Virus record (IMG/VR): IMGVR_UViG_3300035701_000003
DNA: 64,000 nucleotides
Origin: a virus
Direction: 5' to 3' (one strand)
The position numbers were made by a program, and so were the translations under genes. The notes beneath the pieces were generated by a model that saw nothing but the letters and a program-made list of their open reading frames with translations, ran no database searches and was not told where the DNA came from. Every line of letters begins with the position of its first letter. The first letter of the stretch is position 1. Below, piece after piece: positions 1-24,200 of this stretch.

Positions 1-687
1 GTAACAGGTCCTACTGGATATACTGGTTATACAGGTTATACTGGAGCTAATTCAACAGTAACTGGTCCTACTGGTTATACAGGTTATACTGGTCCTAATA
101 TTACAGGTTATACTGGTTACACTGGTTATACTGGAGCTAATTCAACAGTAACAGGTCCTACTGGTTACACTGGTTACACAGGTCCTAATATAACTGGTTA
201 TACAGGTTACACTGGTCCTACTGGTTATACAGGTTATACTGGTCCTAATATAACTGGTTATACAGGTTATACTGGTTATACTGGAGCTAATTCAACAGTA
301 ACTGGTCCTACTGGTTATACAGGTTATACTGGTCCTAATATAACTGGTTATACAGGTTACACTGGTCCTACTGGTTATACAGGTTATACTGGTCCTAATA
401 TAACTGGTTATACAGGTTATACTGGTTATACTGGAGCAAATTCAACAGTAACAGGTCCTACTGGTTATACAGGTTATACTGGTTATACTGGTTATACTGG
501 AGCTAATTCAACAGTAACAGGTCCTACTGGATATACTGGTTATACTGGTCCTAATATAACTGGTTATACAGGTTATACAGGTCCTACTGGTTACACTGGT
601 TACACAGGTCCTAATATAACTGGTTATACAGGTTATACAGGAGTTACAGGTTATACAGGTTATACAGGTTATACAGGTTATACTGGA
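1..687 (+). repeat. Collagen-coding 9-bp repeat tract 1 (ggt tat act/aca) with GPNIT and GANSTVT interruptions
   Basis: Directly visible tandem GGTTATACT-type units. Confidence 0.95.
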
Positions 688-1704
688 ACTCAATATCCCT
701 GGGAAGGAGCTTGGGCCACCTCAACTTTATATCATGTGAATGATTGTGTAAGTAACGGAGGAAGTGGGTATGTTTGTAAGACACAGCATACCTCTGGTGT
801 CTTTGCTGATGATTTAACAGCTGCTAAATGGGAATTATTAGTATCTATAGGAGCTACTGGATATACTGGATATACGGGCGCTGCAAGTACTGTTACAGGT
901 CCTACTGGTTACACAGGTTATACTGGTCCTAATATAACAGGTTATACTGGTTATACTGGTTATACTGGTTATACTGGTTATACTGGACCAAATATAACAG
1001 GTTATACTGGTTATACTGGTCCTACTGGATATACTGGATATACAGGTCCTAATATAACAGGTTATACTGGTTATACTGGTTCTACTGGTTATACTGGTTA
1101 TACTGGTTATACTGGTCCTAATATAACAGGTTATACTGGTTATACTGGTTATACTGGTTATACTGGTTATACTGGACCAAATATAACAGGTTATACTGGT
1201 TATACTGGTCCTACTGGATATACTGGATATACAGGTCCTAATATAACAGGTTATACTGGTTATACTGGTTCTACTGGTTATACTGGTTATACAGGTTATA
1301 CTGGTCCTAATATAACAGGTTATACTGGTTATACTGGTTATACTGGTTATACTGGTTATACTGGTTATACTGGTTATACCGGGCCTTCACCAGCAAGAAC
1401 AGGAACTACTACTAATTCAGGTACTCCTACTCCTAATTGTGATACTACCGATATTTACACGGTAACTGCTCTGGTAACAGCCGCTACATTTGGTGCTCCT
1501 GCTGGAACCCCCGTTAATGGGCAGAAACTCATGATAAGAATATATGCCGCGGCCGCAAGAGTGTTGGATTGGAATGCTGTTTATGCAGCTAGAGGCGTGG
1601 CTAAACCAACAACTACAGTAGCAGGTAAGTATCAGTATATAGGATTTATTTATAATACAACTACATCTACCTGGGACTGTATAGCATCCATAACAGAGGC
1701 ATAG
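1..1704 (+). CDS. Collagen-like (Gly-Tyr-Thr) fibre protein, 5'-truncated, with an internal CBM5/12-like module and a C-terminal fibre-tip domain
   Basis: Frame 1 is open from base 1 ([11 protein letters not shown]...) to TAG at 1702-1704, so the track ORF at 736 is only its 3' part. Two G-X-T tracts flank [29 protein letters not shown], which resembles chitin-binding type-3 modules. Confidence 0.85.
850..1386 (+). repeat. Collagen-coding repeat tract 2, containing a 189-bp tandem duplication (925-1113 / 1114-1302)
   Basis: GPNIT units start at 925, 985, 1045, 1114, 1174, 1234 and 1303; the two 189-bp copies differ at one synonymous base by eye. Confidence 0.9.
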
Positions 1705-1705
1705 G

Positions 1706-2449
1706 ATGCCTTTTACATCCGTAACAGCTAGAGGTTCAATAAAGGTAAGCGGGATAGATAGTACATCCGTTCTAATAGCCGTTACTGCAAATATTGTGGT
1801 AGGTAAAATACTCATTGCTTGTATAGTAATTGATAACACAGCTACTGCAGATGGAGCTTCTTCTACTGTTACTATTGCAGATGACGCAGTTAATACATGG
1901 GTTAAAATAGGAGAATACACTGATTCAGACGGTGCAGCTTCTGATGGTGCTACTATTGCGATGTTTGCATCAAAAATAACAACACAAATTAATAGTGCTG
2001 CGAACATAACATTTACATTTAGTAATGCTTTAGATAAATATGGTTACTGTTTTGAAGTAACAGTAGGAAACGGTCATACTTTTGGTATTGGGCAGGTAGG
2101 TACTAATTCATCCGCAAGCGGTACTGCCGCCTCAATAGATGTTTCTGTAGCTGGTTTACCTTCTCAAGAATATCTTTTAGTAGGACTTGCTGGTGCGGAA
2201 GGAGAGGATAATGCAAAAGATAAGGATGCAGATTATACAGAATTATTAGATGACATTACATCAACTGTCGGTGCTTTAGCTGTAAATTTATCTATACACG
2301 TTCAAACTAGAGTAGCAACATTAACTGCTGATACCTGCACATCATCCGCCTGGACTTATACGAATTTAATAGCTATGCTTGCAGCTTTATATGAGACGGA
2401 TGTGGTACCGTATCAGATGTTAGAAATGTTTGAATCAACGAGAACATAA
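1706..2449 (+). CDS. Putative virion structural protein (beta-rich)
   Basis: 247 aa, rich in Ala/Thr/Val/Gly, starts 1 nt after the fibre gene stop; no family recognised. Confidence 0.5.
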   Translation: MPFTSVTARGSIKVSGIDSTSVLIAVTANIVVGKILIACIVIDNTATADGASSTVTIADDAVNTWVKIGEYTDSDGAASDGATIAMFASKITTQINSAANITFTFSNALDKYGYCFEVTVGNGHTFGIGQVGTNSSASGTAASIDVSVAGLPSQEYLLVGLAGAEGEDNAKDKDADYTELLDDITSTVGALAVNLSIHVQTRVATLTADTCTSSAWTYTNLIAMLAALYETDVVPYQMLEMFESTRT

Positions 2450-3124
2450 ATGTCAGCTATTATATCACCTTTTCCTTCTTTTCAGATTGTAACGCCACCC
2501 GAATCGGGAGGAGTTTTTGTGACTGGTGCCGAAAATGGTAATACTGCTGATTTTAGTGGTATATACCAAACTAATGGCACCTTTACTGCGTCTCAAACTC
2601 AAAAATATTTAGGAAGTTGGTCTTATAAAGCAGTAACTACTAATAATGCTACTCAACAAGCTTTTGCAAGAAAAAATTTACCCGCTGCTAATACTTATTA
2701 TGCACGATGTTATGTATATATTGACTCTACTACTGCGGGACCTAATAGCGGGTATGAAACTCTTCTAAATTTAAGAAGTGGTACCCAGGTTGGTTCTGCA
2801 TTATATCTTAATTATAACGGCTCTGGTGTTCCGTATAGATGGTGTTTTACGGTTCTTATTCCAGATTATTATTCAACTACTAATTTCAGTATGAATGCTT
2901 GGCATTGTATAGAAATATTAGTAACTATCGGCGGCGGCGCAAACTCTATTCATAAATGTTGGATAGATGCAACTTTAGTATTTGATTATAGTAATGGAAC
3001 TCAAACTGAACAATTAGAAAGAGTGTTAGTAGGGCCTCAAGGGGACGCAGGTGATAATTCCACAGTTTTAATTTATTTCGATAATGCAAAAATAGATACT
3101 AGTTACATTGGACTATATCCTTAA
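2450..3124 (+). CDS. Concanavalin/lectin-like beta-sandwich virion protein
   Basis: Aromatic-rich strands (TYYARCYVYID, WHCIEILV, KCWIDATLVFD, IYFDNAKID) typical of LamG or polysaccharide-lyase-like folds. Confidence 0.5.
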   Translation: MSAIISPFPSFQIVTPPESGGVFVTGAENGNTADFSGIYQTNGTFTASQTQKYLGSWSYKAVTTNNATQQAFARKNLPAANTYYARCYVYIDSTTAGPNSGYETLLNLRSGTQVGSALYLNYNGSGVPYRWCFTVLIPDYYSTTNFSMNAWHCIEILVTIGGGANSIHKCWIDATLVFDYSNGTQTEQLERVLVGPQGDAGDNSTVLIYFDNAKIDTSYIGLYP

Positions 3125-3140
3125 TGAATATAGGAGATAT

Positions 3141-3182: not shown

Positions 3183-3204
3183 ACTAAAAAAAAAGGAAAG
3201 AATA

Positions 3205-6200
3205 ATGTTGTTTTCTGTATGTACTATAATGAAGAACGAGGCCGGAACCCTTCCTAAACTGGCTTTATCCTTAAAGGATTTTTTAGTTAATGGCGGAGTA
3301 TGGGTTTGTACAGATACAGGTTCTACGGACGATTCCGCGAATGTAGCACGTTCTTTAGGGGCGATTGTTTACGAAGAGGGGGAAAAGTTTATAAAAGTTA
3401 TTACTAAAGTAAAAGCCGATAAAATAAATAAAAGATTTCTTGTCCCCGGGGAACCTATTATAGTAAGGGAAGGAGATAGATTATTTGATTTTGCTTCCGC
3501 AAGGAACTACTGCGCTGATAAAGCTCCTACTAACATGGTTATAGCGGTTGATGGAGACGAATTCTTTACAAAATTGGATTTTAATAAAATAAATGAATTT
3601 ATAGATTCTGGTATAGAGATGTTTGAAACTGAATTTATCTTCGCGCGTACTGAATACGGAGAACCTGCCATTCAGTTTGTACAAAATAGATTTTATGATA
3701 AGAGAGTTATGCAGTACTCTGGTATAGTACATGAAATACCCGTTGGAAATACAAATAGAATAAAAAGATTACCTACTCATATTTATATGCTCGAGCATGG
3801 TCAAGAACTTGGTAAAATACACAGATCAAGTTATCTAACAGGGTTAGCCTTAGATTGCTACGAACATAGGGATAAGGATAGACAGAGCCATTATTTCGCA
3901 AGAGAATTATTATATAGCGGAAGATATAAGTCGGCTATTGCTGAATTCAAACGTCATCTTACTCTAGGGGGTTGGGTACTAGAAGCAGCCCAGTCTATGA
4001 TATTTATAGGTGATTGTTATGGAAGACTTAATATGCCCGAAGAACAAATTGAGTGGTATAATAGGTCTATATATTTTAATTCCGACAGAAGAGAAGCTTT
4101 TATTAGAATGGCGGAATTCTATAGACATAATCAAAACATTAAAGCTTGTGCTGCTTATGCGGCCGCAGCTCTTGTAATTCCCTATACGGATTACTATGCT
4201 AATAACATGGATCATTATAGACAATATCCTCACGAGTTGCTTTATTGGGCCTGTGGGTGGATAGGTAATATTAAAGAAGCGCAGGATCATATAATAGAAT
4301 GTTTAAAATATCAACCTGATAATCTCGTATATCTAAGAGATACTCAATATTATTTTGAATATCCTGCTCAGAGTATAGAAGGATGGATATCCTTCCTTGA
4401 ATGTCAATGGCTTTATAATACAGCTAAAAAAATGAATTCCATATTAGAAATAGGATCTTGGGAAGGTAAGAGTTCCCATGCTTTACTTTCTGGTTGTAAA
4501 GGTAAAGTAACCTGTGTTGATCACTTTCAAGGCTCGTCCGATCCCTCGGATTTATCCTATATTATAGCTAAGAAAAAAGATATTTATACGAGTTTTATAA
4601 AAAATGTAGGGCACTTTAAGAATCTCGAAGTTATAAGAGCATCTAGCGAAGAAGCTTCCGAAATTTTGAAGGGTAGAAAATTTGATATGATATTTATTGA
4701 TGGAACCCATACTTATGACGAGGTAAAAAAAGATATTAATTTATGGCAAAATAGAACTAATATTTTATTAACGGGGCATGATTATGGATTTAAAAATCTT
4801 GGTGTGAAACCTGCTGTTGATGAACTATTAGGTATTCCAGATGAAATAGTTGGTAGTATATGGGCTGTAAATGTAAGTAAAAGAACCTCTAACACATCTC
4901 CTTCTCCAGTTACTCAAAATATACCTAAAAAAATATTTACTATATGGTTAAATAAGGAAAAAGAGTTACCTCCCCTTATTCAAAAATGCATAAATTCTCA
5001 AAAACTAGAAGGTTACGAACACAAATTAATTACTCTTGATAACTGTTTTAAAGATTCTAATTATATACAAAGTTTTCTTAGTTTATCCGATGATCAAAAG
5101 ATATGGACAAAGGCAACCGATTATTTACGCATATACTATTTATATACAGAAGGGGGTATTTATTTAGACGCTGATGTTGAAGTATTACAAGCAAAGACTT
5201 TCGACCATTTACTAAACGCCCGCATGTTTGTAGCAAGAGAAACTAACGGGTACTTAGGGTCTGCCGTAATAGGCGCTGAGAAAGGATATCCTTTCCTTAA
5301 ACAGTGGTTGGATGCTATGACTACTGAATTTAAAGGAGATGATAATAAATATTTTGAACCTTCTATGGAATTACTTACAGTTGGTTATCATGAAAGGAAT
5401 TGGTATAAAGAAGGTTTTGTTATTCTTTCATACGATTACTTTTTTCCTTACGATCATTTAAATAATACTGTTAATATAACTGATAATACTATCGCCTATC
5501 ATTATTTTGCGAAAGGTTGGAAAGAAGATGATTCTCCCACCGTTTCTATTATAATTCCTACTTTGGGTAGAGAACAAGGGTTGCAAAATTGTTTAAATTC
5601 TATTAAATATTTAAATTATCCTCAAGACAAAATAGAAACTATAGTTATTGAAGATAAACCGCGGTTAGGTGTTCCTTTACGAATAAAAGAGGGTTATGAA
5701 AAATCTATGGGAGAGTATATTTGTTATGCTGCCAATGATATGGAGTTCACTCCTAATAGTTTAAGATTAGCTATAAAAGATTCTATAAAATATAATAAAC
5801 GATTAGTAGCTTTTGATACTGGTGTAAGGAACGAGCAGGATTATATTTGCGAGCATTTTGTAATAAAGAGAAGTTTAGTTGAACAGTTGGGTGGTATATT
5901 CGATACCCGATTTAAGCACTATTGTTGTGATACTTTACTTTGGGAAAAAGCCTTTAAACTTAACGAAACAATGATTTCAAAAGGGTTTGTAAATCATTAT
6001 CATTATTCGAGAATAGGCTCTGGAATGCCCATTGATAATATCAATGAACTTGCTATAGTGTCTGTAGACGAAGATAGAACATTGTTAACGGAATTACGCA
6101 GTGAAAAAACTGATATAATAAAATTTAAAAGAGAGCGAAAGATTAATAGATTAGCGTTACCTATAACGAGAGGCTGTAATAGAAGATGTCCCGAATGTAC

Positions 6201-6816
6201 TGCTGTTGAAAGAGAAGGATTTCTAGCTAACCCTATATCTATTGTAGAATTAAAAGAAGTAGGTAATTTAATAGGATCTATTGAAAAGATCGAAGTTACA
6301 GGAGGAGAACCTAGTTTTCATCCAAAGTTTAAAGAAATATCGGAGAATTTACACAAATGGTTTCAATGTAAAGATATTATGCTTTTAACAAATGGTTGGG
6401 CTTTTAGTAAAGATGACAATCTTCCAATTTTATTAAATTATGATAGAGTTTATATAACCCATTATAATGATAACTTTGCGAAGTTATATGAAGAGAAATC
6501 TAATACTCATCTTGTAAAAAAATTAGAAAGTTACTTAAAAAATTATCCTAAGATACAATTCTGGCCCCAAGATATGGATAGTCATAATCCCATTAAGGAA
6601 CCTGTTCCTTGGGCAAGCGGTTGCTTATATGATTATGATAAGAGCGACATGATTAGTTATCACGAGGGACAATTGTATGGGTGTTGTACCGCGTGGCAGT
6701 TAGACTATAGAGGTAAAGGGATTCCTCTTACTAAGGAGTGGCGAGACCATCTTAGCGAAATAGAACTTCCCTGTAATAAATGTTTTCTTGGAATAGAAGT
6801 AAAGAAACTTATTTAA
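3205..6816 (+). CDS. Multi-domain enzyme: GT2-TPR + class I SAM methyltransferase + GT32 (DXD) + GT2 + radical SAM
   Basis: N-terminal SVCTIMKNE...DTGSTD...VDGDE (GT2); TPR-like helices; ILEIGSWEGKSS...IFIDGTHTY (Methyltransf_24-like); IPKKIFTIW...EGGIYLDADV (GT32); VSIIIPTLGR (GT2); GCNRRCPEC, TGGEP, LTNG (radical SAM). Confidence 0.85.
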   Translation: MLFSVCTIMKNEAGTLPKLALSLKDFLVNGGVWVCTDTGSTDDSANVARSLGAIVYEEGEKFIKVITKVKADKINKRFLVPGEPIIVREGDRLFDFASARNYCADKAPTNMVIAVDGDEFFTKLDFNKINEFIDSGIEMFETEFIFARTEYGEPAIQFVQNRFYDKRVMQYSGIVHEIPVGNTNRIKRLPTHIYMLEHGQELGKIHRSSYLTGLALDCYEHRDKDRQSHYFARELLYSGRYKSAIAEFKRHLTLGGWVLEAAQSMIFIGDCYGRLNMPEEQIEWYNRSIYFNSDRREAFIRMAEFYRHNQNIKACAAYAAAALVIPYTDYYANNMDHYRQYPHELLYWACGWIGNIKEAQDHIIECLKYQPDNLVYLRDTQYYFEYPAQSIEGWISFLECQWLYNTAKKMNSILEIGSWEGKSSHALLSGCKGKVTCVDHFQGSSDPSDLSYIIAKKKDIYTSFIKNVGHFKNLEVIRASSEEASEILKGRKFDMIFIDGTHTYDEVKKDINLWQNRTNILLTGHDYGFKNLGVKPAVDELLGIPDEIVGSIWAVNVSKRTSNTSPSPVTQNIPKKIFTIWLNKEKELPPLIQKCINSQKLEGYEHKLITLDNCFKDSNYIQSFLSLSDDQKIWTKATDYLRIYYLYTEGGIYLDADVEVLQAKTFDHLLNARMFVARETNGYLGSAVIGAEKGYPFLKQWLDAMTTEFKGDDNKYFEPSMELLTVGYHERNWYKEGFVILSYDYFFPYDHLNNTVNITDNTIAYHYFAKGWKEDDSPTVSIIIPTLGREQGLQNCLNSIKYLNYPQDKIETIVIEDKPRLGVPLRIKEGYEKSMGEYICYAANDMEFTPNSLRLAIKDSIKYNKRLVAFDTGVRNEQDYICEHFVIKRSLVEQLGGIFDTRFKHYCCDTLLWEKAFKLNETMISKGFVNHYHYSRIGSGMPIDNINELAIVSVDEDRTLLTELRSEKTDIIKFKRERKINRLALPITRGCNRRCPECTAVEREGFLANPISIVELKEVGNLIGSIEKIEVTGGEPSFHPKFKEISENLHKWFQCKDIMLLTNGWAFSKDDNLPILLNYDRVYITHYNDNFAKLYEEKSNTHLVKKLESYLKNYPKIQFWPQDMDSHNPIKEPVPWASGCLYDYDKSDMISYHEGQLYGCCTAWQLDYRGKGIPLTKEWRDHLSEIELPCNKCFLGIEVKKLI

Positions 6817-7994: not shown

Positions 7995-9410
7995 ATGAGT
8001 AAAAGTTATAGTACTATCGTTCAGAGTATGCGGGATTATATAAAAGCCATTTATCCCTCAGCACAAACCCATGAGGGTAGCGTTTTAGATGATATAGTAA
8101 TTGCTGTACCTTCTCGTGAATTATCCCAATTATATGAAAAAGTAGATCTTGTATCGGAAGCTCAGTCTATAGAAACAGCCACTCAAGATGGTTTAGAGAA
8201 ATTAGGAAGTAATGTAAACAAATTCCAGAAATCAGCAATTCCTGCTACTGGTATAGTTACCTTTTTTAGTAGTACTGCTCCTACTTTTGATATTACTATT
8301 CCCGCTAATACTGTAGTATCTACAAGAGGAAGCGCTGGAGTTATTCCTAAGAAGTTTAGAACTCTTAGAAAAGTAGTTATGTATAAAGTTCTAGCCGGTT
8401 CTTATTTAAATTCCTCTAATGGTAAATATGAAATTTCAGCTGCTATTGAAGCTCTTACGCCAGGGCAAAATGGAGTAGTTGGAGCTAGAGCTGTAGATGC
8501 TATACAAGGTAGTATTACTGGAATAGAAGGAGTTTATAACGCTTCCGCTACTTCCGGAGGGGAAGATTTTGAAAGCGAGCAAGATTTTGCTCAAAGAATT
8601 GCAGCTGCTTTTACTGGTAATATTTTAGGTACCGAAGATGGTTATCTTTCCGAAGCTTTAGCAATTGATGAAATAACTTCTGCTACCGTAGTAGGTCATG
8701 GTAATACAGGTAGAGATATCATGAATGCTGTTGATATTTACTATAAAGGTTCTAGAATGAGTACTTATACTGATATATTTACTGTACCTCAAGGGGTGCT
8801 TATTAGTGAAGTAGTCTTAACTAAACAACCTGTAGTAGTTGATACCGTAACTACTTTAATTTATGGTAATACTGGTTCTATAATAGGAGTATCTCCCGCT
8901 TGGAGTTTGGTAAAAGATACGGGAGTTTATAAAGGTTCTATTTATGGATTAGATAAAATCGAATTTTCTGGGGAATTAGTTGCTAGTTTAGGTACCGTAT
9001 ATGTTACTTATTCTTATAATTCTTTATCCGAGGTTTTGCAAAATATGTTTACTAAAACTAATAAGGACCTTTTAGACATATCTATTTTAGTAAAAGAAGC
9101 GAGTGCTATATCTATAGATATTGATTTGGATGTAACCGTTTTAGCTGGTTTCGATACTTTGTTAGTAGCCTCTGCTATTCAAGATGTAGTCGCTTCTTTT
9201 TTGGATGGTTTATCTATTGGACAAGAATTACAAACAGCCGATGTGGCAAGAGAAGTTTTAAATACACCCGGTGTAGATGATGTGTTACTACCTTTTACTT
9301 TATTCAGGGCCTCCGATGGTTCTATATTACCTAACGCTAGTAATAATTTAGTTATACCTTCTGATAGTTATGCTACGGCTGGTACTATTACTATTACTAC
9401 TTCTATATAA
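7995..9410 (+). CDS. Baseplate J-like wedge protein
   Basis: ATGIVTFF...ITIPANTVV, IEALTPGQNGVVGA, YNASATSGGEDFESEQDFAQRI, LSIGQEL...TPGVDDV. Confidence 0.85.
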   Translation: MSKSYSTIVQSMRDYIKAIYPSAQTHEGSVLDDIVIAVPSRELSQLYEKVDLVSEAQSIETATQDGLEKLGSNVNKFQKSAIPATGIVTFFSSTAPTFDITIPANTVVSTRGSAGVIPKKFRTLRKVVMYKVLAGSYLNSSNGKYEISAAIEALTPGQNGVVGARAVDAIQGSITGIEGVYNASATSGGEDFESEQDFAQRIAAAFTGNILGTEDGYLSEALAIDEITSATVVGHGNTGRDIMNAVDIYYKGSRMSTYTDIFTVPQGVLISEVVLTKQPVVVDTVTTLIYGNTGSIIGVSPAWSLVKDTGVYKGSIYGLDKIEFSGELVASLGTVYVTYSYNSLSEVLQNMFTKTNKDLLDISILVKEASAISIDIDLDVTVLAGFDTLLVASAIQDVVASFLDGLSIGQELQTADVAREVLNTPGVDDVLLPFTLFRASDGSILPNASNNLVIPSDSYATAGTITITTSI

Positions 9411-13799: not shown

Positions 13800-15065
13800 A
13801 TGGGTAAAATTAAAGTTTTAATGATTTCCGACGATATTCGAGATTATACTGGTGTTGGAATTCAATCTAACAAATTACTTACAGGACTTGCTAAGAATAA
13901 AGATTTTGAAGTAATACAAATGGGAGTATCTCCTATTATTTTTGCTTCTAATCCAAATCCTGTAAACGTAGATGGTGTAAAAGTATTTCCTACTAGAAGT
14001 TATGCAGATATGAATTTATTCCGTTATCTGCTAAGTAATGAACGCCCTGACGTAGTTATTCCTTTCTCCGACCCTAGATTTTTTATACCTCTTTTTTCTA
14101 TGGATGACGATATAAGGAAGAAAGCGTGGTTAGTTTTTTATCATCTTTGGGATAATTATCCTTTTCCACGTTTTAATACTCCTTGGTATAAGGCCTGCGA
14201 TGAATTGGTTTTAATATCTAAGTTTGCTTATGATATGTATGCCGAAAATGGATGGAATTGCCATTTTATTCCTCACGGTTATGATGATAAAGAATTCTAT
14301 CGTACTCCCGAAGCTAATTATATAACAACCAAAAATGATATCTTAAAACAGTTAAATAGAGACGATATTGATTTTATAATATTTTGGAATAATAAAAATT
14401 TACATAGAAAGAGGGGAGCTGATATTATAACAACCTTCCATTCTTTTTATAAAGAACATCCAAAATCTGTTTTAATAATGCATACCGAACCTACCTTCCC
14501 TGACGGTTTCGATTTGATTAGTATTAATGATGATTTGACTACTATTAAAGAGATACCAGTAATTTTTAGTATCCATAAGGATAAATCTCTTATGTTAAAT
14601 AACTTATATAATATGTCGGATGTTTCTATTAACTTTTCTTATAATGAGGGTTTCGGGTTAAGCGTTGGGGAATCCTTACTAGCAGAAACTCCTGTTATAG
14701 CGACAGCTACTGGTGGTATGATTGAACAGTTAACTACCAAACAAGGTGTTGCCGGTAAGTTATTAGATCCGCTTATAAAAACCCTCTTTGGAGTACCTGG
14801 AAATTCCTATGTTTACCAAGATTTCGCTTCTAACAATGCCTTATTATTAGCACTGAACGAATCCTACGAAAATCGCCAGTTATGGAGGGATAAAGGAAGA
14901 ATAGGAAGGGAACATATCCAAGAAAATTACCATATTAACGGAACTATTGATAAATGGGCTTCTTTTCTAAAAAATCTAGTTGGGAAAGAACGTACTTACA
15001 AACCTTGGCAATTATTTTCAATACCATCTAGTTTAAAGGAGGTAGACTTCCATGTTAAAGCATAA
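13800..15065 (+). CDS. Glycosyltransferase, GT4 family
   Basis: KIKVLMISDD...TGVG; NNKNLHRKR; YNMSDVSINFSYNEGFGLSVGESLLAETPVIATATGG. Confidence 0.85.
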   Translation: MGKIKVLMISDDIRDYTGVGIQSNKLLTGLAKNKDFEVIQMGVSPIIFASNPNPVNVDGVKVFPTRSYADMNLFRYLLSNERPDVVIPFSDPRFFIPLFSMDDDIRKKAWLVFYHLWDNYPFPRFNTPWYKACDELVLISKFAYDMYAENGWNCHFIPHGYDDKEFYRTPEANYITTKNDILKQLNRDDIDFIIFWNNKNLHRKRGADIITTFHSFYKEHPKSVLIMHTEPTFPDGFDLISINDDLTTIKEIPVIFSIHKDKSLMLNNLYNMSDVSINFSYNEGFGLSVGESLLAETPVIATATGGMIEQLTTKQGVAGKLLDPLIKTLFGVPGNSYVYQDFASNNALLLALNESYENRQLWRDKGRIGREHIQENYHINGTIDKWASFLKNLVGKERTYKPWQLFSIPSSLKEVDFHVKA

Positions 15066-16257
15066 TCTTGTAATTAGAGCACCTTTATATTCCAGAAGTG
15101 GTTACGGGGGACACGCGCGCGATTTACTCAAGGCTCTTTGGGACTCTAATCAATTTAATCTATTTGCTATTCCTACTCAATGGGGGGCTACTTCACTTAC
15201 TAGTAACTTATCCCCAGAGATGCTTGATATATTATCTTTTTGTATACGTAACTCTATAGAGGTAAAAGACTCTATTTTTATGCATATAGGGATTCCCAAT
15301 GAATTTGAAAAATTAGGGAAGTACAATATAGGAGTTACCGCTGGTTTAGAAACTGAAACTATTTCTGAGGAATGGGTAAAAGGATGCAATCTTATGGATT
15401 TAGTAGTCGTACCTTCTACTTTTATGGAAAGAGTCTTTAGAAGTTCTGGAGTAAGAGGAGATATATTAGTTTGTCCTGAAGGAGTAAATACCGATATCTT
15501 TAATAAAGCAGCGCCTCCTTTAGAACTTCCTCAAGTGGCTACTCCTTTTAACTTCCTTAGTGTCGGTCAGTGGATACATTACGATATACATCAGGATAGA
15601 AAGCAAATAGGGTATCTTATAAAACAGTTTGTTGAAATTTTTAGATATACTACTGATGTTGGTTTAATAATAAAAACTTTTACTTTTAATACAGCTACCC
15701 CCGATTCTTATTTTACCTTAAGAAGATTTAAGGATACTATCGGGGACGATTTAGAAGGAGTTCCTCCAATATATTTCTTACATGGTGATATGACTGATAA
15801 TGAATTAGCTGGGTTATATACTAATCCTTTAGTTAAAGGTTTTGTGACCCTTACCAGTGGAGAAGGGTGGGGAAGATCTTTAGCAGAAGCGGCCGCTTGT
15901 GGAGTACCCATAATAGCCCCTGATTGGTCTAGTTACTTAGATTTCTTAAATCCCGAAGTAGCTACTTTATTACCCGTCAAGTTAGTTGAAATTCCTTATA
16001 CAGTAGTAGCTGGTTATAGAGGTATGTTTCCGAGAGGGGCACGTTGGGCACAAGTACATCCGGATACTGTAAGTAAAGCCCTTAAGAAATTTTATCATGA
16101 CCACTCTGATTGTAAACAAAAAGCTCTTGATTATGTACCTTTATTTACAGAAAGATTTTCATTTAAGAATTCTTATATGTCTTTAGTACAAAAGTTAATA
16201 TTAATTAGTCCTGGAGCTATTAATAAACCAAGTAACTTAAGAATAATAAAAACATGA
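15052..16257 (+). CDS. Glycosyltransferase, GT4 family
   Basis: SGYGGHAR; FNFLSVGQW...DRK; TSGEGWGRSLAEAAACGVPIIAPDWSS. Confidence 0.85.
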   Translation: MLKHNLVIRAPLYSRSGYGGHARDLLKALWDSNQFNLFAIPTQWGATSLTSNLSPEMLDILSFCIRNSIEVKDSIFMHIGIPNEFEKLGKYNIGVTAGLETETISEEWVKGCNLMDLVVVPSTFMERVFRSSGVRGDILVCPEGVNTDIFNKAAPPLELPQVATPFNFLSVGQWIHYDIHQDRKQIGYLIKQFVEIFRYTTDVGLIIKTFTFNTATPDSYFTLRRFKDTIGDDLEGVPPIYFLHGDMTDNELAGLYTNPLVKGFVTLTSGEGWGRSLAEAAACGVPIIAPDWSSYLDFLNPEVATLLPVKLVEIPYTVVAGYRGMFPRGARWAQVHPDTVSKALKKFYHDHSDCKQKALDYVPLFTERFSFKNSYMSLVQKLILISPGAINKPSNLRIIKT

Positions 16258-16523
16258 TACCCAATTATAAAACCTTACGCTGCAGCGGGACTATTTTAAA
16301 AGATAATTCTAAGGAAATAGTCAAAAAATGGACCTTTGTTCCTACTGATGATATTACCGTTAAAGAATTATCTTTATTGTTACCTTTTCTTCTTACTTCT
16401 GGAAGACCCGGTTTAATACTTTCTGATTTGGAATATTTTGAAAACACTAACTTACTAAGACACTTTATTATTGAAGACGTTTCTAATATATTACAGGTCA
16501 CTCCTAACATTACTATAAACTAA
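16254..16523 (+). CDS. Hypothetical protein
   Basis: 89-aa ORF with ATGA overlap to the upstream gene. Confidence 0.5.
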   Translation: MIPNYKTLRCSGTILKDNSKEIVKKWTFVPTDDITVKELSLLLPFLLTSGRPGLILSDLEYFENTNLLRHFIIEDVSNILQVTPNITIN

Positions 16524-16536
16524 TTAAATAAATTAT

Positions 16537-18447
16537 ATGCCTCTACATACACTGTCTATTATTGTTCCTTTACATAATCAAAGTATCTTTACCAAAAAAT
16601 TTATAGTCTCTGTTTTAGCGCAAGAAACTTCCTTCTATGAATACGTAGTGGTAGTTTTTATAGATAATAACTCTACCGATGATACTCCTACTTTTCTAAA
16701 GAACGTACCCGATACGAATAATATTGAATTTAATTGCATAACTAATGACGAAAATTTAGGTTTTGCAAAGGCTGTGAATCAAGGGATTAAATTTTCTTTA
16801 GAAAACTATCCCGAATGTGATATATTAGTTACTAATAATGATATAGAGTTTTTATCCGGATGCTGGGATGCTTTAGCTACTACTGCTTACAAAGATCCTA
16901 CTCGCGGTATTGTGGGAGGTAAATTATTATTTTCCGATGGTAGGATACAGCACGGCGGAGCGTGGTTGAATGTTTTAGGCTGGGGTCAGCATAAAGGAGG
17001 AGGAACTCCTTCTGATACTAAAGGGATATGTGATAAAGAAGAAGAACAGGAATATGTTACAGGAGCTTTATTTTTTATTAAAAATGAATTAATACTTAAG
17101 TTAAAAGGTTTTGACGAACAATTTTCGCCAGCTTTCTTCGAGGAAACTGATTTTGTGTACTCAGCCCGTCAATTAGGTTACAAAACCATTTATACCCCCG
17201 ATGCTAGAGCTATTCACTATGAAAACACTACTGGTAAAGCTCTTCATAAAGATCCTATGACATTAAAGATTACTTTAAGTGATGCTAATCAAGTTAAATT
17301 TTACCAGAAATGGCCTGGTCCTCTTACTTTTCCAGAAGATAAAGATAGGGAACATAAAATACTTTTACAGGGTAAAATTTATGGCGACTGGTCTTTCACT
17401 AATACCTTAAAGAAACTTGCCTTGGGTTTGGACAAAGCCGGAGTAGACGTATCTATAGCGCCTGATGAATATCATAACGTTTTGGATATGCCTGATTGGA
17501 AAATAAAAAAGATGATTCTAAAACCTAATGATTATTGGAATAGGGTAGTTTTAAGGCACAGTGAAGGGGATCATATGTATGTTGCAGGACCTGGTAAAAA
17601 AAGAATAGGTTATGTAGCTTTAGAGAATAGTATATTAAATTCCTTGTGGAAAGATCAACTTAACCATTTAGATTTAGTATTATGCGTATCTTCTTTCGTT
17701 CAAAATATATTAAAAGAAGGGGGGGTTACTACCCCTACAGAAATTCTTACTAATTGTGTCGATATTTCTTCTTTTCATCCAGATATAGAACCTTATCCTT
17801 TAGGTTATGATTTAGCCGGTTTTTGTTTTTATTCTATATTTAGTTTTGGGGAAAGAAAAGGACCCGATATTCTTCTAAAGGCTTTCTGCCAGGAATTTTC
17901 AAGAAAGGATGATGTGTGTCTGTTTATACATAGTTTATCTATGTTGCAAAATTTAAGTCAGAAAAAAGTATCCCTAAACGATTGGTTGGATTCTTTTGCA
18001 CCTTCTCAAAATAGAGCTCCTATTTTTGTTACAGGTAACTATATATATGATGCTTTTTTACCCGCTATAATAAATAATTTCGATATATTTGTATTACCTA
18101 CTAGAGCCGAGGGGTTTGGTTTACCTATATTGGAAGCAGGCGCTTGTAAGATTCCTTCTATAGTTACTGGTTATAGTGGAGTATTAGAATTTGCAGACCC
18201 TAGTAACTCCTGGTTGATTGATTATGAATTGAAAGATATTCCTTTACAATACTTGACTTATTTTAAAAACTATATTGGAGGAAAGTGGGCTGAACCTAAT
18301 GTGGAACATTTAAGATCTTTAATGAGGTACTCTTATGAACATAGAGATAAGGTGAAACAAAAAGGTGAGAATGCTTATAAAAAAGCCCAGTTATTTTCTG
18401 TAGAAAATAACGGTAAACGCGCAAAAGAAATAATTTTTGAAAGGTGA
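16537..18447 (+). CDS. GT2 + GT4 bifunctional glycosyltransferase
   Basis: LSIIVPLHN...IDNNSTD...NLGFAKAVNQG...NNDI (GT2); RKGPDILLKAF...PTRAEGFGLPILEAGAC (GT4). Confidence 0.9.
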   Translation: MPLHTLSIIVPLHNQSIFTKKFIVSVLAQETSFYEYVVVVFIDNNSTDDTPTFLKNVPDTNNIEFNCITNDENLGFAKAVNQGIKFSLENYPECDILVTNNDIEFLSGCWDALATTAYKDPTRGIVGGKLLFSDGRIQHGGAWLNVLGWGQHKGGGTPSDTKGICDKEEEQEYVTGALFFIKNELILKLKGFDEQFSPAFFEETDFVYSARQLGYKTIYTPDARAIHYENTTGKALHKDPMTLKITLSDANQVKFYQKWPGPLTFPEDKDREHKILLQGKIYGDWSFTNTLKKLALGLDKAGVDVSIAPDEYHNVLDMPDWKIKKMILKPNDYWNRVVLRHSEGDHMYVAGPGKKRIGYVALENSILNSLWKDQLNHLDLVLCVSSFVQNILKEGGVTTPTEILTNCVDISSFHPDIEPYPLGYDLAGFCFYSIFSFGERKGPDILLKAFCQEFSRKDDVCLFIHSLSMLQNLSQKKVSLNDWLDSFAPSQNRAPIFVTGNYIYDAFLPAIINNFDIFVLPTRAEGFGLPILEAGACKIPSIVTGYSGVLEFADPSNSWLIDYELKDIPLQYLTYFKNYIGGKWAEPNVEHLRSLMRYSYEHRDKVKQKGENAYKKAQLFSVENNGKRAKEIIFER

Positions 18448-19028
18448 CTATTATGAAAGTAACTAAATTATTTGAAATAACCTTTGATGAACCAGATCCT
18501 GATTGGCTTTGTGCCGATAATTTAAATATTGTTTTGAAAGATGCATTAGAACCTCTTACCTTTGAAATAAGAGAACTTACTAATAGAGAACAATATTTGG
18601 AAAAGTTTAATATAGGTTCTGTTTTTGATCTTCGGTCTGAAGAAATTACAGTAGAAGAAATAGGTTTAGATACCGGGATAGAAGAAAAGGAGGAAAAACT
18701 AACAGAAACTCCTATTATTCATAAACCTTTAATAAACGTGGCTGAGAAAAACGCGGTTTTACGCGCTGCTAAAGGTTCTGGGGAATCTATTTCTTCTAAA
18801 ATAAAATCAGTTATAAAAGGGGCTACCGATGTTAAGGATGTTCAAGATCTTTCTTCTGGGGAAGATATTATAGATCCTAAAAAATTAGTCGCTCATATAG
18901 CACCAGGTCCCTCCGGAAAAATTTGTGAAAAGCCTAAACGGCATAAAGAAAAGATACCCGGAGGTGGCGCTATTGAATTTTGTACTACTTGTGGTTTTCA
19001 ATACGTGGATACAGATTTACTGGAGTAA
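18444..19028 (+). CDS. Hypothetical protein with a C-terminal Cys/His cluster
   Basis: Acidic ORF ending C..K..H...FCTTCG; the true start may be ATG 18453. Confidence 0.5.
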   Translation: MTIMKVTKLFEITFDEPDPDWLCADNLNIVLKDALEPLTFEIRELTNREQYLEKFNIGSVFDLRSEEITVEEIGLDTGIEEKEEKLTETPIIHKPLINVAEKNAVLRAAKGSGESISSKIKSVIKGATDVKDVQDLSSGEDIIDPKKLVAHIAPGPSGKICEKPKRHKEKIPGGGAIEFCTTCGFQYVDTDLLE

Positions 19029-19033
19029 GGGAA

Positions 19034-19975
19034 ATGCCTAATTCTATAATAGTACATGCGGTACCCGTTAATAAAGATGTATGTGGAGGCATTAAGGTTC
19101 ATTATCAAATGTCCATGATAGAAAAAGAATTGGGATATTCTTCTTTTATTGTTTATAAGGAAGATGAGGTTCCTTCTATTAAATGGTTTGAACACAGCTG
19201 TAATGAATACTCCTTACAACATTTTAAGAGTTATTTAGAGAAAGAAGAGAAAGAAGTTTTTCTTTTAATAGGATGGGAAGACCCATCTTCTCTATATATT
19301 TTACCCGCCAAGAATAAGGTAGCTTACATTCAAGGACACGTTTTCTTCAGAGAAAATGCCGCCTATAGTAATGCTAAGTTGTGGTATAACAGTGAATTTG
19401 TGATGAGAACTTGTAAATATAAAGGGGAAGTCGTCCGCCCTTATTTAGCTTCTTATTTTTTTAATACCGATAGAGACGCTTGGAGTTATAATAAAGATAA
19501 ATATATTTTACTAGTACAAGAACGAAAAGACGGAAGAAAGGAATGGGAAAAAGTAGCTCGACAACTATCTAAAGAGGTTTTAGAGAAATTAGATGTTATA
19601 ATATGGCCGAATTCTAACGAGAAAGAATTTAGGGATGCCTTGGCGAGAGCCGACATATTTTTTACTCATTCTTTTCCCGAAGGGTTTGGGCTACCACCAT
19701 TAGAGGCCATGGCCTTAGGCGCTCTTGTAGTGGGATATACTGGTGGTGGCGGAGAAGATTTTATGAGAGACCGTGAGAATTGTTTTATAGCAAAAGATGG
19801 CGTTAACTGCGAAGTAGCAGAACATATAACAAATATAGTATTGCATAACTATCTTTTTTTACCAAGTGTAATAGCTAATGCCCATGAAACTTCTTCTTTC
19901 TATAGTAAAGAGGCGACCCTAAATATATTACGAAAAATACTTAAGGAATATGAAAATGGAAGTGAAACAGTTTAA
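19034..19975 (+). CDS. Glycosyltransferase, GT4-like
   Basis: CGGIKVHY; ARADIFFTHSFPEGFGLPPLEAMALGALVVGYTGGGG; start moved to ATG 19034 after AAGGG. Confidence 0.85.
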   Translation: MPNSIIVHAVPVNKDVCGGIKVHYQMSMIEKELGYSSFIVYKEDEVPSIKWFEHSCNEYSLQHFKSYLEKEEKEVFLLIGWEDPSSLYILPAKNKVAYIQGHVFFRENAAYSNAKLWYNSEFVMRTCKYKGEVVRPYLASYFFNTDRDAWSYNKDKYILLVQERKDGRKEWEKVARQLSKEVLEKLDVIIWPNSNEKEFRDALARADIFFTHSFPEGFGLPPLEAMALGALVVGYTGGGGEDFMRDRENCFIAKDGVNCEVAEHITNIVLHNYLFLPSVIANAHETSSFYSKEATLNILRKILKEYENGSETV

Positions 19976-20477
19976 AGACAGCGAAGAAGGTCCTAAAGGT
20001 ATAACAGAACAAACTACAGAAGGCGTAACTGGTTCTACAAGTATACAAGGACATCTGCTAATTATAGATAGTGTTAAAGAAAAGTTTTGTCCAAAATGTG
20101 GTAATTATTACCGTGATGATTTTATGATTATGTGCCCTCATTGTAATATGTCTTTGAACTTTACCGAGAGTTATAAAGTAGAAAGACAATGTTCAAAGTG
20201 TGACTATGTTGTACAAGCCCCCCCTTCCTATTTTATAAAAGATCCTACCCTTTCTATTTGTCCTTATTGTAAAGAAGGTCGCTTGGAAGTAAAAGAAATA
20301 TACAGAGAAGCTCCTAGTTTTTCTATAGATGGGAAATTTAATGGAGCTAAACGCGGAAAAATGATAAGGGAAAAGAACGAGCAATTAAAAAAGAAACACG
20401 CGGGGTACTCTTACGAAACTCCTAAATCAATAAGTGAGAGAACCCTTGAAAAATATAAAAAAAGAAAAGAACAATGA
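19950..20477 (+). CDS. Double zinc-ribbon protein (FmdB-like C-terminal half)
   Basis: CPKC, CPHC, CSKC and CPYC pairs; YKVERQCSKC...CPYCKEGRLE. Confidence 0.6.
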   Translation: MKMEVKQFKDSEEGPKGITEQTTEGVTGSTSIQGHLLIIDSVKEKFCPKCGNYYRDDFMIMCPHCNMSLNFTESYKVERQCSKCDYVVQAPPSYFIKDPTLSICPYCKEGRLEVKEIYREAPSFSIDGKFNGAKRGKMIREKNEQLKKKHAGYSYETPKSISERTLEKYKKRKEQ

Positions 20478-20935
20478 CTTGGGTATTTGGTGATATTTGG
20501 ATTTATTGGAAGTTAGGTAGCGCTATAGTTATCCCGACTAACGCTGGTTGGAAATCTGATGGTACTAATGTTATGGGGGCTGGATTGGCTAAACAGGCAG
20601 CTGCTCAATTTTCAGATTTAACTTTACGTTATGGTAGAAACTGTAAAGAAAAAAGTCCTTATCAATACTATAAGGACTTAAGATTAATTTTAGTTCCTTC
20701 TAAACTTCTTAACGAGGAAAAACCTTATTTAAGTTGGCAGGGGGATTCTGATATTAATGTTGTTAAGGAATCTTTGATTTGGTTAAATACTAACGCTGAT
20801 TCTTTCGAAAGCGATAAGGTATATGTACCTTTATTAGGAGCCGGTAACGGTCATTTGGATGATGATGTAATTAAAAAAATTATGAAAGAACATTTAAAAC
20901 ATCCTAAATTTTTTGGAGTACTGTGGAATGAATAA
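20474..20935 (+). CDS. Macro domain protein (TARG1/DarG-like ADP-ribose hydrolase)
   Basis: GDIW...IVIPTN...VMGAGLAKQ...PSK...W...VYVPLLGAGNGHL. Confidence 0.75.
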   Translation: MTWVFGDIWIYWKLGSAIVIPTNAGWKSDGTNVMGAGLAKQAAAQFSDLTLRYGRNCKEKSPYQYYKDLRLILVPSKLLNEEKPYLSWQGDSDINVVKESLIWLNTNADSFESDKVYVPLLGAGNGHLDDDVIKKIMKEHLKHPKFFGVLWNE

Positions 20936-22553
20936 TTTGCTTGGTATATATTGCTTTATAAGAAACGGACTGAAATTTGATTATCCATTTATTGAGTCTA
21001 TAGAATCAGCCGTTCCTATAGCTAATCAAATTGTTATAAATGAATGCGATTCCGAAGACGATACTTTAAATAAACTTTTAGAACTAAAAGAGAAATATCC
21101 TGAAAAAATTAAAATAATAAGGGATAATTGGGTAACGCATCATTCTCAATTATGCGCGCGGGGTAATCTTTGCATTCCTTATCTTACTACTCAGTGGCAT
21201 TGGCAATTACAGGCCGACGAGGTTTTACATGAAAAAGATTATGATTTAATTCTTAAGACTTTAACTGATACTCCTGATAGTATAGATGCTTATAAACCTT
21301 ATTACTATCATTTTATGGCTAATTATGAAACAGAATTCAATTTTATGTACGTTAAAGCCGCGCGTATAGCCCGCAAGAATACCGGTTGGTGGCTTGTTGG
21401 GGACGCTGCGGAAATAGCAGGAGGAGATCCTAATAGACTTGCTGATTTTCCTGAGGCTATAAAAGTATTTCATTACGGTAAAGTAAAAGATGGTAAAACA
21501 GGTTGGCAGAAAGAATGGGATTTTACTAATTTGTATAAGGATATAGGATTTCCTGATCCTAAAATGAAAGAAATGGAAGTAAAATTTGGTGAGCAATATT
21601 GTGATTATATTTATGTATTTGAAGGAGCCATCGAAAGAGGAGAAGTAAGGCATTATACTGGCACTCATCCTAAAGTGATGGAAGAGAGAATAAAGAACTT
21701 TAAAATGGGAGGCTATGAACAATTTATATCTCGTTTCAAGGAGTCTTTGGATTTGAAAAACTTAAAGGATACCAAATTACAAGATTCTAAAAAAGAACTG
21801 AAAAGAGAGGAAGAACTTACCGAAAACGACAAAAATAGAATTTACGAATGCAGAATAGGGGGAAAAAATATAGATTCTATGGAAAATGTTACTTTACGTA
21901 TGAAACATGATTGGAATAAAAGAGCTCTTAAAGATGCACCCTTCTATATTACAGGTTCCCCTAACATTTCCCCAGAATGGCTTCGACACTCCGGTAAGAT
22001 AGATTTTGATTTACATTTTCTACCGCGTTTTCTTCAACTTTATTCCAAAGAGAAATTTAGACTACCAACTATATTAGAGATAGGTTGTGGCATAGGCAGG
22101 ATGTCTGAATATATAGCAAGTTATTGTGACACGCTAATAGCTGCGGATATTAGTGCAGAGTTTTTAGAAGTGGCAAAACTTCGTCTAGCAGAATCTCTTA
22201 TAAACAATGTTACCTGCTTGGAATTAAATGGGTATTCTCTTGAGGGAATTTCTGATAATTCAATAGATCTCGCATTTGAATATATAGTGTTCCAACATAT
22301 AGGAAGTTTTGAAATTATAGTTTCTTATTTGAAAGAGATTGGTAGAGTACTGAAGAGCGGCGGGTACTTTATAATGCACGCTCGAGCCAATGATTTTGCT
22401 GCGGATAACTCTCTTAATATGGATAACACTTTTCATGGGTGTAACGTTACTTATACTATGATGATAGATACTATTAAGGAAACAGGAAATCTTGAGATAA
22501 TAGAACATAACATCTCTAATAATGATTATTGGGGAATAATAAAAAAGAAATAG
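20928..22553 (+). CDS. GT2 glycosyltransferase fused to a class I SAM methyltransferase
   Basis: IESIESAVPIANQIVINECDSED...LQADE...VFHYG; C-terminal ILEIGCGIGRMSE...AADISAEFL...VLKSGG. Confidence 0.85.
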   Translation: MNNLLGIYCFIRNGLKFDYPFIESIESAVPIANQIVINECDSEDDTLNKLLELKEKYPEKIKIIRDNWVTHHSQLCARGNLCIPYLTTQWHWQLQADEVLHEKDYDLILKTLTDTPDSIDAYKPYYYHFMANYETEFNFMYVKAARIARKNTGWWLVGDAAEIAGGDPNRLADFPEAIKVFHYGKVKDGKTGWQKEWDFTNLYKDIGFPDPKMKEMEVKFGEQYCDYIYVFEGAIERGEVRHYTGTHPKVMEERIKNFKMGGYEQFISRFKESLDLKNLKDTKLQDSKKELKREEELTENDKNRIYECRIGGKNIDSMENVTLRMKHDWNKRALKDAPFYITGSPNISPEWLRHSGKIDFDLHFLPRFLQLYSKEKFRLPTILEIGCGIGRMSEYIASYCDTLIAADISAEFLEVAKLRLAESLINNVTCLELNGYSLEGISDNSIDLAFEYIVFQHIGSFEIIVSYLKEIGRVLKSGGYFIMHARANDFAADNSLNMDNTFHGCNVTYTMMIDTIKETGNLEIIEHNISNNDYWGIIKKK

Positions 22554-22564
22554 GAGAAAAAGAT

Positions 22565-22948
22565 ATGCATCTTAGAAACATAATATTATATGTAGCGGGT
22601 CCTTATAGTAGTGATAGTGTGGATGGTGTTACAGTTAATATAAAAAAAGCTGCTGAGATATCACAACATCTTTGGGATGAAGGCTTTACTGTTATTTGCC
22701 CCCACACTAACACAGCCCACTTTACACACGATAAAACTTCTTATGAGGATTACATAGAAGGGTGTTTGTGTATGGTAGCTAGATGTGATGGGGTGGTTTT
22801 AACGAATACTTGGAGCGAATCCGAGGGAGCTCGTAGAGAGAAAGAAAGAGCAGATCTTCTTAACATTCCTACCTTTAATTTAAATACTATTACTTTTGAT
22901 ACTATCAAAGGATATTTTGATAATAAGTTGAAAATACAAAAGGAATAG
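22565..22948 (+). CDS. DUF4406 / nucleoside 2-deoxyribosyltransferase-like protein
   Basis: LYVAGPYS...ICPHTN...CDGVVL...WSESEGARRE. Confidence 0.7.
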   Translation: MHLRNIILYVAGPYSSDSVDGVTVNIKKAAEISQHLWDEGFTVICPHTNTAHFTHDKTSYEDYIEGCLCMVARCDGVVLTNTWSESEGARREKERADLLNIPTFNLNTITFDTIKGYFDNKLKIQKE

Positions 22949-22950
22949 TA

Positions 22951-23457
22951 ATGGGACCTTTAGATAATAGCAAAGAATCAAATATTGTTACTAGAGTGAT
23001 TCTAGAGATAAATTATTTAGAAAAATTTATGCTCGAGTCTAATTCTATAGAAGGAGAAGATTATTTGAATCCTAGTGATATAATAGTAGCAAAAGAAGTA
23101 ATTGAAAAAGGAATTAAAAATCTAAAACATCTCCAAAAATTACATAGTATTATTACAAAACATTTACAGGTTTCCTGGGGAGGTAAATGGAGGACGGTTA
23201 ACGTTAAAGTTGGTTCTTATAAACCTCCCTTATGGCAGGAAGTCCCTGAGTTGATGTTAATGTATTGGAGTAATTTTGATCATATGGACTCTTGGCAGGC
23301 TCACAATGAATTTGAACATATACACCCTTTCCAAGATTTTAATGGTAGAATGGGTAGACTTATTTGGTTATCCAAAGCAATTAAGGAAGGTTATAACTTT
23401 AGATATCCTTTTTTACAGAAATACTATTATCAAACCCTTAACAATTTTAGGAGATAG
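22951..23457 (+). CDS. Fic-domain protein
   Basis: HNEFEHIHPFQDFNGRMGR, against the canonical HPFxDGNGRxxR. Confidence 0.8.
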   Translation: MGPLDNSKESNIVTRVILEINYLEKFMLESNSIEGEDYLNPSDIIVAKEVIEKGIKNLKHLQKLHSIITKHLQVSWGGKWRTVNVKVGSYKPPLWQEVPELMLMYWSNFDHMDSWQAHNEFEHIHPFQDFNGRMGRLIWLSKAIKEGYNFRYPFLQKYYYQTLNNFRR

Positions 23458-23461
23458 ATTT

Positions 23462-24196: not shown

Positions 24197-24200
24197 AGCT

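Follow-up and report, generated by a model that had tools for sequence, protein, structure and literature searches.

To our knowledge, the glycosylation of phage virions has been shown so far for only a few mycobacteriophages. In these phages, GT2-type glycosyltransferases (GTs) encoded beside structural genes glycosylate virion proteins, and the targets, as far as the account of Freeman et al. (2023) given in PMC12619734 goes, are the C-termini of capsid and tail tube proteins. Another relevant enzyme is SgtA of C. difficile, a protein of 358 residues composed of a GT-A domain (residues 1-260) and a tetratricopeptide repeat (TPR) domain (residues 262-358), whose gene is found beside bclA3 and which puts beta-O-GlcNAc on the Thr residues of GPT repeats in vitro (PMC7157674). 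The glycosylation of Gly-X-Thr collagen by a GT-A/TPR enzyme and phage-encoded virion glycosylation are thus both already known. We analysed a stretch of 64,000 nucleotides (nt) of the IMG/VR virus record IMGVR_UViG_3300035701_000003, called the window in the following. At positions 3205..6816 of its + strand, the window carries an open reading frame (ORF) coding for a multi-enzyme protein of 1203 residues (P0001), in which a GT-A/TPR head is fused to a methyltransferase (MT), two further GTs and a radical S-adenosylmethionine (SAM) domain. The novelty lies in four points, namely the occurrence in phages, the joining of the modules into one line, the size of the family and the presence of a radical SAM domain. 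On comparative grounds, we find it rather likely that this protein is a soluble, cytoplasmic line of tethered enzymes for the O-glycosylation of the phage's own collagen-like tail fibre.

The ORF contains no internal stop codon, and an AGGA motif resembling a Shine-Dalgarno sequence is found ~8 nt 5' of its ATG. Promoter and terminator scans gave results no better than chance. The protein is composed of six modules, in the order GT-A, TPR, Methyltransf_24 (MT24), GT32, GT2 and compact radical SAM. With a maximal Kyte-Doolittle mean of 1.0 over 19 residues, it has no hydrophobic or transmembrane segment and is predicted to be soluble. The initial annotation of this DNA, which described one uninterrupted ORF of this length with five enzymes and a TPR module between the fibre gene and the baseplate, was correct in every particular. 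The architecture search and structure prediction that it proposed confirmed the modules, based on Pfam matches counted against the curated cut-offs, on PHROG matches and on models with predicted local distance difference test (pLDDT) scores of 92.9 for the head and 90.5 for the radical SAM domain. It had also envisaged that the junctions might be artefacts, or the domains dead. Several observations speak otherwise. An identical protein is on record from three contigs, and each of the module junctions is seen again in independent homologues, as exemplified by the GT2-radical SAM junction of P0003, P0107, L260, L261 and L265. The G+C content is uniform along the ORF (0.31-0.37), and alignments with homologues, including alignment A1 of the ORF with 15 of them, showed that the catalytic motifs of every enzyme module are intact. 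An assembly artefact is thus very unlikely, and we give next to no credit to the idea of an assembly chimera or of a decaying fusion with dead domains. Searches against cultured phages yielded no match by Megablast and only partial matches by tblastn, at 24-41% identity.

The head is formed by a GT2-like GT-A glycosyltransferase (module 1, residues 1-205; 3205..3819, + strand) and a TPR superhelix (module 2, residues ~210-385; 3832..4359). The Pfam signals in this region are weak, with a GT2-like match at residues 89-135 and TPR matches below the cut-off at residues 232-293. The call is confirmed by the agreement between the match of PHROG 13126 to residues 92-388 (2e-44), the structural model and the matches in the PDB. 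The AlphaFold model of the head shows a GT-A fold and, after it, about eight helical hairpins, the helical repeats being at residues 210-382. The motifs DTGSxD (D37, D42), DxDE (D116, D118, E119) and HE (176-177) are invariant among homologues, and the TPR module carries the family signature DR(N/Q)SHY(F/L)(A/G)RE. A profile (A3) built from 36 homologue sequences and run against the PDB gave GmaR (E 3e-15) and SunS (8e-8) as the best catalytic relatives, and it also matched consensus TPR proteins with E values down to 1.5e-41. Foldseek searches with the head model retrieved SunS/ThuS over both domains (E 4e-14), then TarS, GmaR and the TPRs of OGT/SPY; the model also matches SpsA. GmaR is the flagellin O-GlcNAc transferase of Listeria, and SunS and ThuS are S-glycosyltransferases of glycocins (PDB 22ao, 7x9r, 7msn and 7msk). 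Like the phage head, they combine a GT-A domain with a helical repeat; they are cytoplasmic and have protein or peptide acceptors. Their identity with the head in structural alignments is 13-15%, and unlike the phage fusion they are single-enzyme proteins acting on flagellin or small peptides. Based on the profile and the model, the nearest solved relatives of the head are thus cytoplasmic enzymes with protein or peptide acceptors. As for the claim of the initial annotation that the TPR binds the acceptor, the module is present and the head is kin to protein glycosyltransferases, while the binding role is an analogy with FlmG and SgtA.

Members of the GT-A/TPR family were detected in 48 of 399 Clostridia genomes (E <= 1e-10). 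About three dozen of these matches correspond to stand-alone frames of 360-400 residues, with hidden Markov model (HMM) E values down to 3e-51. Such stand-alone genes directly adjoin Gly-Pro-Thr collagen genes at L235 and L237-L239, and the same adjacency was found in 10 of the 20 clostridial loci for which the flank was only 1.5 kb. One of the clostridial proteins aligns with the phage head over 363 residues (26% identity, E 1e-24), with all motifs kept. As the clostridial proteins of 358-405 residues fit the published size, domains and gene position of SgtA, the phage head probably belongs to the SgtA family. In both systems, a GT-A domain precedes a TPR domain, and the gene adjoins that of a Gly-X-Thr collagen-like surface protein. 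Nevertheless, SgtA is a stand-alone enzyme of a spore former, whereas the phage head is the start of a fusion that also comprises an MT, two more GTs and a radical SAM domain. Phage heads also have an insertion of ~30 residues (residues 61-91) unlike SgtA, and the repeats are mostly Gly-Tyr-Thr in the phages and Gly-Pro-Thr in the SgtA system. SgtA adds the initiating sugar to the Thr residues of the repeats; for the phage head, sugar transfer is a prediction. In the literature searched, we found no publication linking the GT-A/TPR family, or SgtA, to phages.

Another precedent for the fusion of such activities is A064R of the chlorovirus PBCV-1 (see the review PMC9614988). This single polypeptide has two glycosyltransferase domains and a methyltransferase domain, and it acts in the cytoplasm to make a portion of the glycan carried by a virion protein. 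A064R belongs to a eukaryotic virus and contributes to an N-linked capsid glycan, and unlike the phage fusion it has neither TPR nor radical SAM domain. The mycobacteriophage GTs, as described in PMC12619734, are separate, small enzymes without collagen, TPR, MT or radical SAM partners, and their capsid and tail tube targets are unlike the collagen-like fibre of the window.

That fibre, the proposed substrate, is encoded at positions 1..1704 of the + strand, upstream of the enzyme gene on the same strand, and its gene ends 1.5 kb from the ORF. Its 5' end lies outside the window. The protein was identified as a collagen-like tail fibre with a globular C-terminal domain (Pfam Collagen, 3e-30; PHROG tail fibre), and its repeats are of the (Gly-Tyr-Thr)n type, interrupted by GPNIT and GANSTVT. 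Each of these breaks holds an Asn-X-Thr sequon, which is unexplained by an O-glycosylation model.

The association of enzyme and collagen genes extends to the family. We looked in 80 IMG/VR loci for collagen-like ORFs of at least 20 triplets, on the same strand and within 10 kb of the family member, and found them in 58 loci. The median gap between the two genes is 1.2 kb; they are directly adjacent (within 300 bp) in 19 cases and within 3 kb of each other in 54. Thr occupies 73% of the Y positions of the linked collagens overall, with values of 56-92% per locus except for L030 (45%), and Tyr or Pro occupies 66% of the X positions. None of the 26 control loci, which were fetched via the MT or radical SAM modules alone, has a collagen gene (Fisher p 1.5e-11). 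After clustering of the enzymes at 90, 70 and 60% identity, the linkage was found in 46 of 65, 33 of 46 and 21 of 28 clusters, respectively. Apart from collagen, no neighbour family exceeds 20 loci out of the 80. The baseplate and flanking genes of the window have no homologues in the related loci, which argues that the enzyme-collagen pair does not reflect inherited synteny. The pair travels together across unrelated phages. The initial annotation had proposed a dedicated virion substrate from the position of the gene alone; the linkage lends comparative support to this idea and makes it possible to name the substrate as a Gly-X-Thr collagen-like fibre, with a biochemical role that is deduced from these comparisons.

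Two collagen-like ORFs with Ser rather than Thr at the Y position were found at L008:2436-8152, adjoining a gene that has the MT24 module only. In the larger of them (2436-6209, 133 triplets), Ser represents 96% of the Y positions. Furthermore, the DNA pattern coding for four Gly-Tyr-Thr repeats is also found in contigs of metagenome-assembled genomes (MAGs) labelled as giant viruses (L107, L111, L116, L125, L130, L163, L168-L170, L172 and L174), and this odd collagen repeat is therefore common to phages and giant viruses.

The head is followed by a class I SAM-dependent MT (module 3, residues ~393-556; 4381..4872). Methyltransf_24 (PF13578) matches residues 414-518 with 57.2 bits (cut-off 26.3), and motif I (E-x-G-x-x-x-G, E415..G421) as well as D439, D499, H502, H525 and D526 are conserved in 14 homologues. 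The module also matches PHROG 2675, labelled 'DNA methyltransferase', which is probably a wrong label given its setting between glycosyltransferase modules. Module 4 (residues ~572-775; 4918..5529) is a GT32-type glycosyltransferase of the Caps_synth / Gly_transf_sug kind, with matches to PF04488 and PF05704 at residues 570-705 (35.0 and 40.2 bits, for cut-offs of 23 and 24.5). Its DxD motif, D655-A-D657 (LDADVE), is conserved in the homologues bearing the module. Module 5 (residues ~776-962; 5530..6090) is a second GT2 glycosyltransferase, matched by PF00535 (Glycos_transf_2) from residue 781 with 45 bits (cut-off 23.3). Its conserved positions are P778..R789 and N844-D845 (P...GR...ND), the latter replacing the canonical DxD. 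Sequence searches of the PDB gave no match for the MT24 and GT32 modules and only marginal ones for the GT2 module. The idea that three GTs prime and extend a glycan that the MT and radical SAM domains tailor or cap, put forward in the initial annotation, has comparative support at its core; the individual roles of the GT32, GT2, MT and radical SAM modules are predicted from family membership only.

The last module (module 6, residues ~976-1203; 6130..6813) is a compact radical SAM domain, probably of the twitch type. Radical_SAM (PF04055) matches residues 986-1086 with 38.7 bits (cut-off 29.5), and the CxxxCxxC motif is found at residues 991-998 (nt 6175-6198), followed by GGEP at residue 1033. 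The Cys residues are C991, C995 and C998 of the motif and a C-terminal cluster at positions 1140, 1160, 1161, 1190 and 1193. In the alignment of 25 family members (A2), the invariants are C991/C995/C998, GGEP, TN, CC (1160-1161) and CxxC (1190-1193). The family of this domain is small and dominated by viruses, with proteins of 220-245 residues. In 9 of 14 metagenome loci, its members are fused to a GT-A/TPR gene (L260, L261 and L265) or immediately adjacent to it, some of them overlapping (L262-L264 and L266-L268), and in other phages the family gene is found near stand-alone MT24 and GT32 genes. The radical SAM family is therefore a regular accessory of the GT-A/TPR system.

The closest fold to the radical SAM model is that of SpeY (7wzx; Z score 16.6, root-mean-square deviation 2.9 over 213 residues), followed by BtrN (4m7t; Z 14.9, 202 residues aligned), and then by peptide-modifying SPASM/twitch enzymes and viperin with Z scores of 12-14. 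SpeY and BtrN similarly consist of a compact, partial TIM barrel with a Cys-bearing, twitch-like C-terminal part, and each catalyses the oxidation of a secondary alcohol in a substrate resembling a sugar. The twitch part of such dehydrogenases binds one auxiliary [4Fe-4S] cluster; the phage domain has four invariant C-terminal Cys residues (CC...CxxC). Their identity with the phage domain is 12-15%. They are free enzymes of aminoglycoside pathways, whereas the phage domain is the C-terminal part or the stand-alone partner of a protein glycosyltransferase. Judging from the model, the oxidation of a sugar hydroxyl, a secondary alcohol, to a ketone would be the nearest precedent for its reaction, and the domain might act on a nucleotide-sugar donor or on a peptide.

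The relatives of the 1203-residue protein comprise 241 proteins of 661-2106 residues in a large protein database, and 213 IMG/VR contigs carry relatives. We ran module HMMs over 93 loci and the window, which showed that the GT-A/TPR head is constant and that the tails are shuffled. The most frequent architecture is GT2N-TPR-GT2b (37), followed by GT2N-TPR-MT24-GT2b (12), the head alone (GT2N-TPR, 10) and GT2N-TPR-MT24-GT32-GT2b (8). Several other module orders occur, each in fewer loci, and the Pfam lists of the relatives add Methyltransf_11/23, GT9 or extra TPR modules. Among the family members examined, the window protein is alone in having all five enzymes together. It is not a singleton, as it belongs to a large, unannotated, combinatorial and mostly phage family; the addition of the radical SAM domain alone is special to the window phage. 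The initial annotation knew of no characterized protein with this architecture. Indeed, no member of the family is characterized, but the architecture is not unique, since the first four enzymes form a common, shuffled phage family. A scan of species genomes detected close copies solely in assorted MAGs, where they are on phage-like contigs, and distant ones in Clostridia. At L233:8001-9077 (G003), on a 936-kb contig of the MAG 'bacterium isolate 7_bin.55', a GT-A/TPR homologue (E 6.6e-146) is read through eight in-frame TGA codons, which suggests that the family is present in a small, TGA-recoded genome (about 0.9 Mb) or in a phage of such a genome.

As regards the acceptor, the sugars, the radical SAM reaction and the sequence of events, we infer the following from the modules and the collagen linkage. 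The GT-A/TPR head, of the SgtA / GmaR / SunS kind, would dock on the (Gly-Tyr/Pro-Thr)n repeats and use a nucleotide sugar to place the first sugar on the hydroxyl of the Thr residue at the Y position. The GT32 and the second GT2 modules would then each add a further sugar, possibly aided by the GT4 and GT2 genes located 7-20 kb downstream. Methyltransf_24 may cap or decorate the glycan by methylation of a sugar hydroxyl, and the twitch radical SAM domain may modify a sugar, either attached or in the form of the nucleotide-sugar donor. With all the modules tethered to a single substrate-binding head, they would stay near a substrate whose Thr sites are all alike and number in the hundreds. All the steps would take place in the cytoplasm, ahead of assembly.

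Several observations weigh against this proposal. No collagen gene is found within 10 kb in 22 of the 80 family loci, and in the reverse test on loci with the Gly-Tyr-Thr DNA pattern, the enzyme was found in only 13 of 119 loci, with short flanks that limit this test both ways; such collagens are therefore much commoner than adjacency to the enzyme. The kinship with SgtA goes through clostridial look-alikes that were matched to the published description of SgtA, not to its sequence, and the TPR module may serve for oligomerization instead of acceptor binding. The window also harbours at least nine GT domains and a large GT island, which would suit the synthesis of a polysaccharide. ABC-transporter-dependent pathways likewise use soluble multi-domain GT/MT proteins for the synthesis of lipid-linked O-antigens, as exemplified by WbdA/WbdD and WbbB. 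These last two points lead to the main rival, namely that, in the infected cell, the protein makes or alters a lipid-carried polysaccharide of the host surface, either O-antigen or capsule, for instance to block superinfection. In pelagimyophages and cyanomyoviruses, cassettes of GT and radical SAM genes that belong to the host-recognition cluster have been read in this manner, as O-chain or cell-wall modification genes, although without experiment (PMC7029224, PMC12801897). We consider this unlikely for the window protein, because the nearest solved relatives of its head modify proteins or peptides, not lipid-linked glycans, and because Gly-X-Thr collagen genes accompany its family in unrelated phages as well as in Clostridia. 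In addition, there are no polytopic membrane proteins on the + strand of the window, and no flippase (Wzx), polymerase (Wzy), ABC exporter or polyprenyl-phosphate transferase was found in the window ORFs scanned, which lie outside 26-34 kb. The host could supply the genes for lipid-linked export (Wzm/Wzt). A role in DNA glycosylation was ruled out by the head resembling protein GTs, the TPR module and the linkage to collagen genes.

If the acceptor is a protein, it might differ from the collagen-like fibre and be a host protein or another virion protein, such as that of the capsid, the tail sheath or the tail tube. Mycobacteriophages offer a precedent, since their GT2 enzymes are known to glycosylate the capsid and the tail tube (Freeman et al. 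2023, cited in PMC12619734). The 22 family loci that have no nearby collagen gene and the Asn-X-Thr sequons of the fibre, left unused by the proposed O-glycosylation, would fit such targets. Yet collagen is the sole conserved neighbour family, and the stand-alone homologues of Clostridia are also paired with collagen genes, making another protein target improbable. Alternatively, the radical SAM domain, and possibly the MT as well, might act on the fibre polypeptide itself by epimerization, cross-linking or oxidation of Tyr or Thr residues, such that the maturation of peptide and glycan would be combined. The fold of the domain resembles those of the peptide-modifying enzymes SuiB (Z 13.9), ChlB (13.4), anSME (13.2) and EpeE (12.6), which also counts against our proposal, and there are weak NCBIfam matches to HxsC, AlbA and YydG. 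Minimal pairs of radical SAM and GT-A/TPR proteins devoid of other GTs (L263, L267 and L268) are also consistent with this possibility. Nevertheless, the top two matches over the full length are carbohydrate dehydrogenases that act on small molecules and are just as compact, with Z scores 1-3 units above those of the peptide enzymes. The domain comes after the GT2 module in most fusions, and no RRE-like peptide-recognition domain is present. Thus, action of the radical SAM domain on the peptide seems to us rather unlikely, and a carbohydrate substrate is preferred in the glycosylation line that we propose.

The routine annotation of GT islands in aquatic phages is that of host cell-wall genes or of DNA-modification genes. 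That these phages sugar-coat their own fibres is a testable alternative. If this is true, the glycan coat bears on the stability of the fibres, on host recognition and on the reading of 'auxiliary metabolic genes', and the modular fusions would be a natural toolkit for protein O-glycosylation in the cytoplasm. In its most far-reaching form, which we regard as possible but still doubtful, the window protein would be the first single-polypeptide line to prime, extend, methylate and radical-SAM-tailor the O-glycan of a virion protein, and its radical SAM domain would represent a new kind of enzyme acting on protein-linked sugars or their donors. Glycosylated collagen-like fibres would then be widespread and overlooked in aquatic phages, and GT islands ascribed to host lipopolysaccharide ('host-LPS') would be virion-glycan genes.

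In the window, the fibre and enzyme genes are separated by two small ORFs (1706..3124, + strand) coding for proteins of 247 and 224 residues, the first with one N-terminal hydrophobic segment. For the four small ORFs that flank the enzyme gene (1706-3124 and 6823-7989), neither Pfam nor PHROG gave a match, and about 230 related loci contain no homologue. The structural module continues with a baseplate J / wedge subunit gene (7995..9410, + strand). Farther downstream, domain scans revealed a glycan island (13800..25487, + strand) that might extend the same glycan. It is composed of GT4 genes (13800-15065, 15052-16257 and 18980-19975), a GT2+GT4 fusion (16537-18447), a Methyltransf_11 fusion (20913-22553), a gene for a Fic domain protein (22951-23457), a GT2 gene (23276-24196) and a gene for a B12-binding radical SAM protein (24144-25487).

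The phage itself is large and uncultured, and it is remote from cultured phages. Its baseplate J protein shares 29% identity with those of Bacillus phage G and of haloarchaeal tailed viruses, and its PolA (50298-54002) shares 28% identity with those of SPO1-like Bacillus phages. A pelagimyophage or T4-like origin was ruled out based on these matches of PolA to SPO1-like phages and of baseplate J to phage G.

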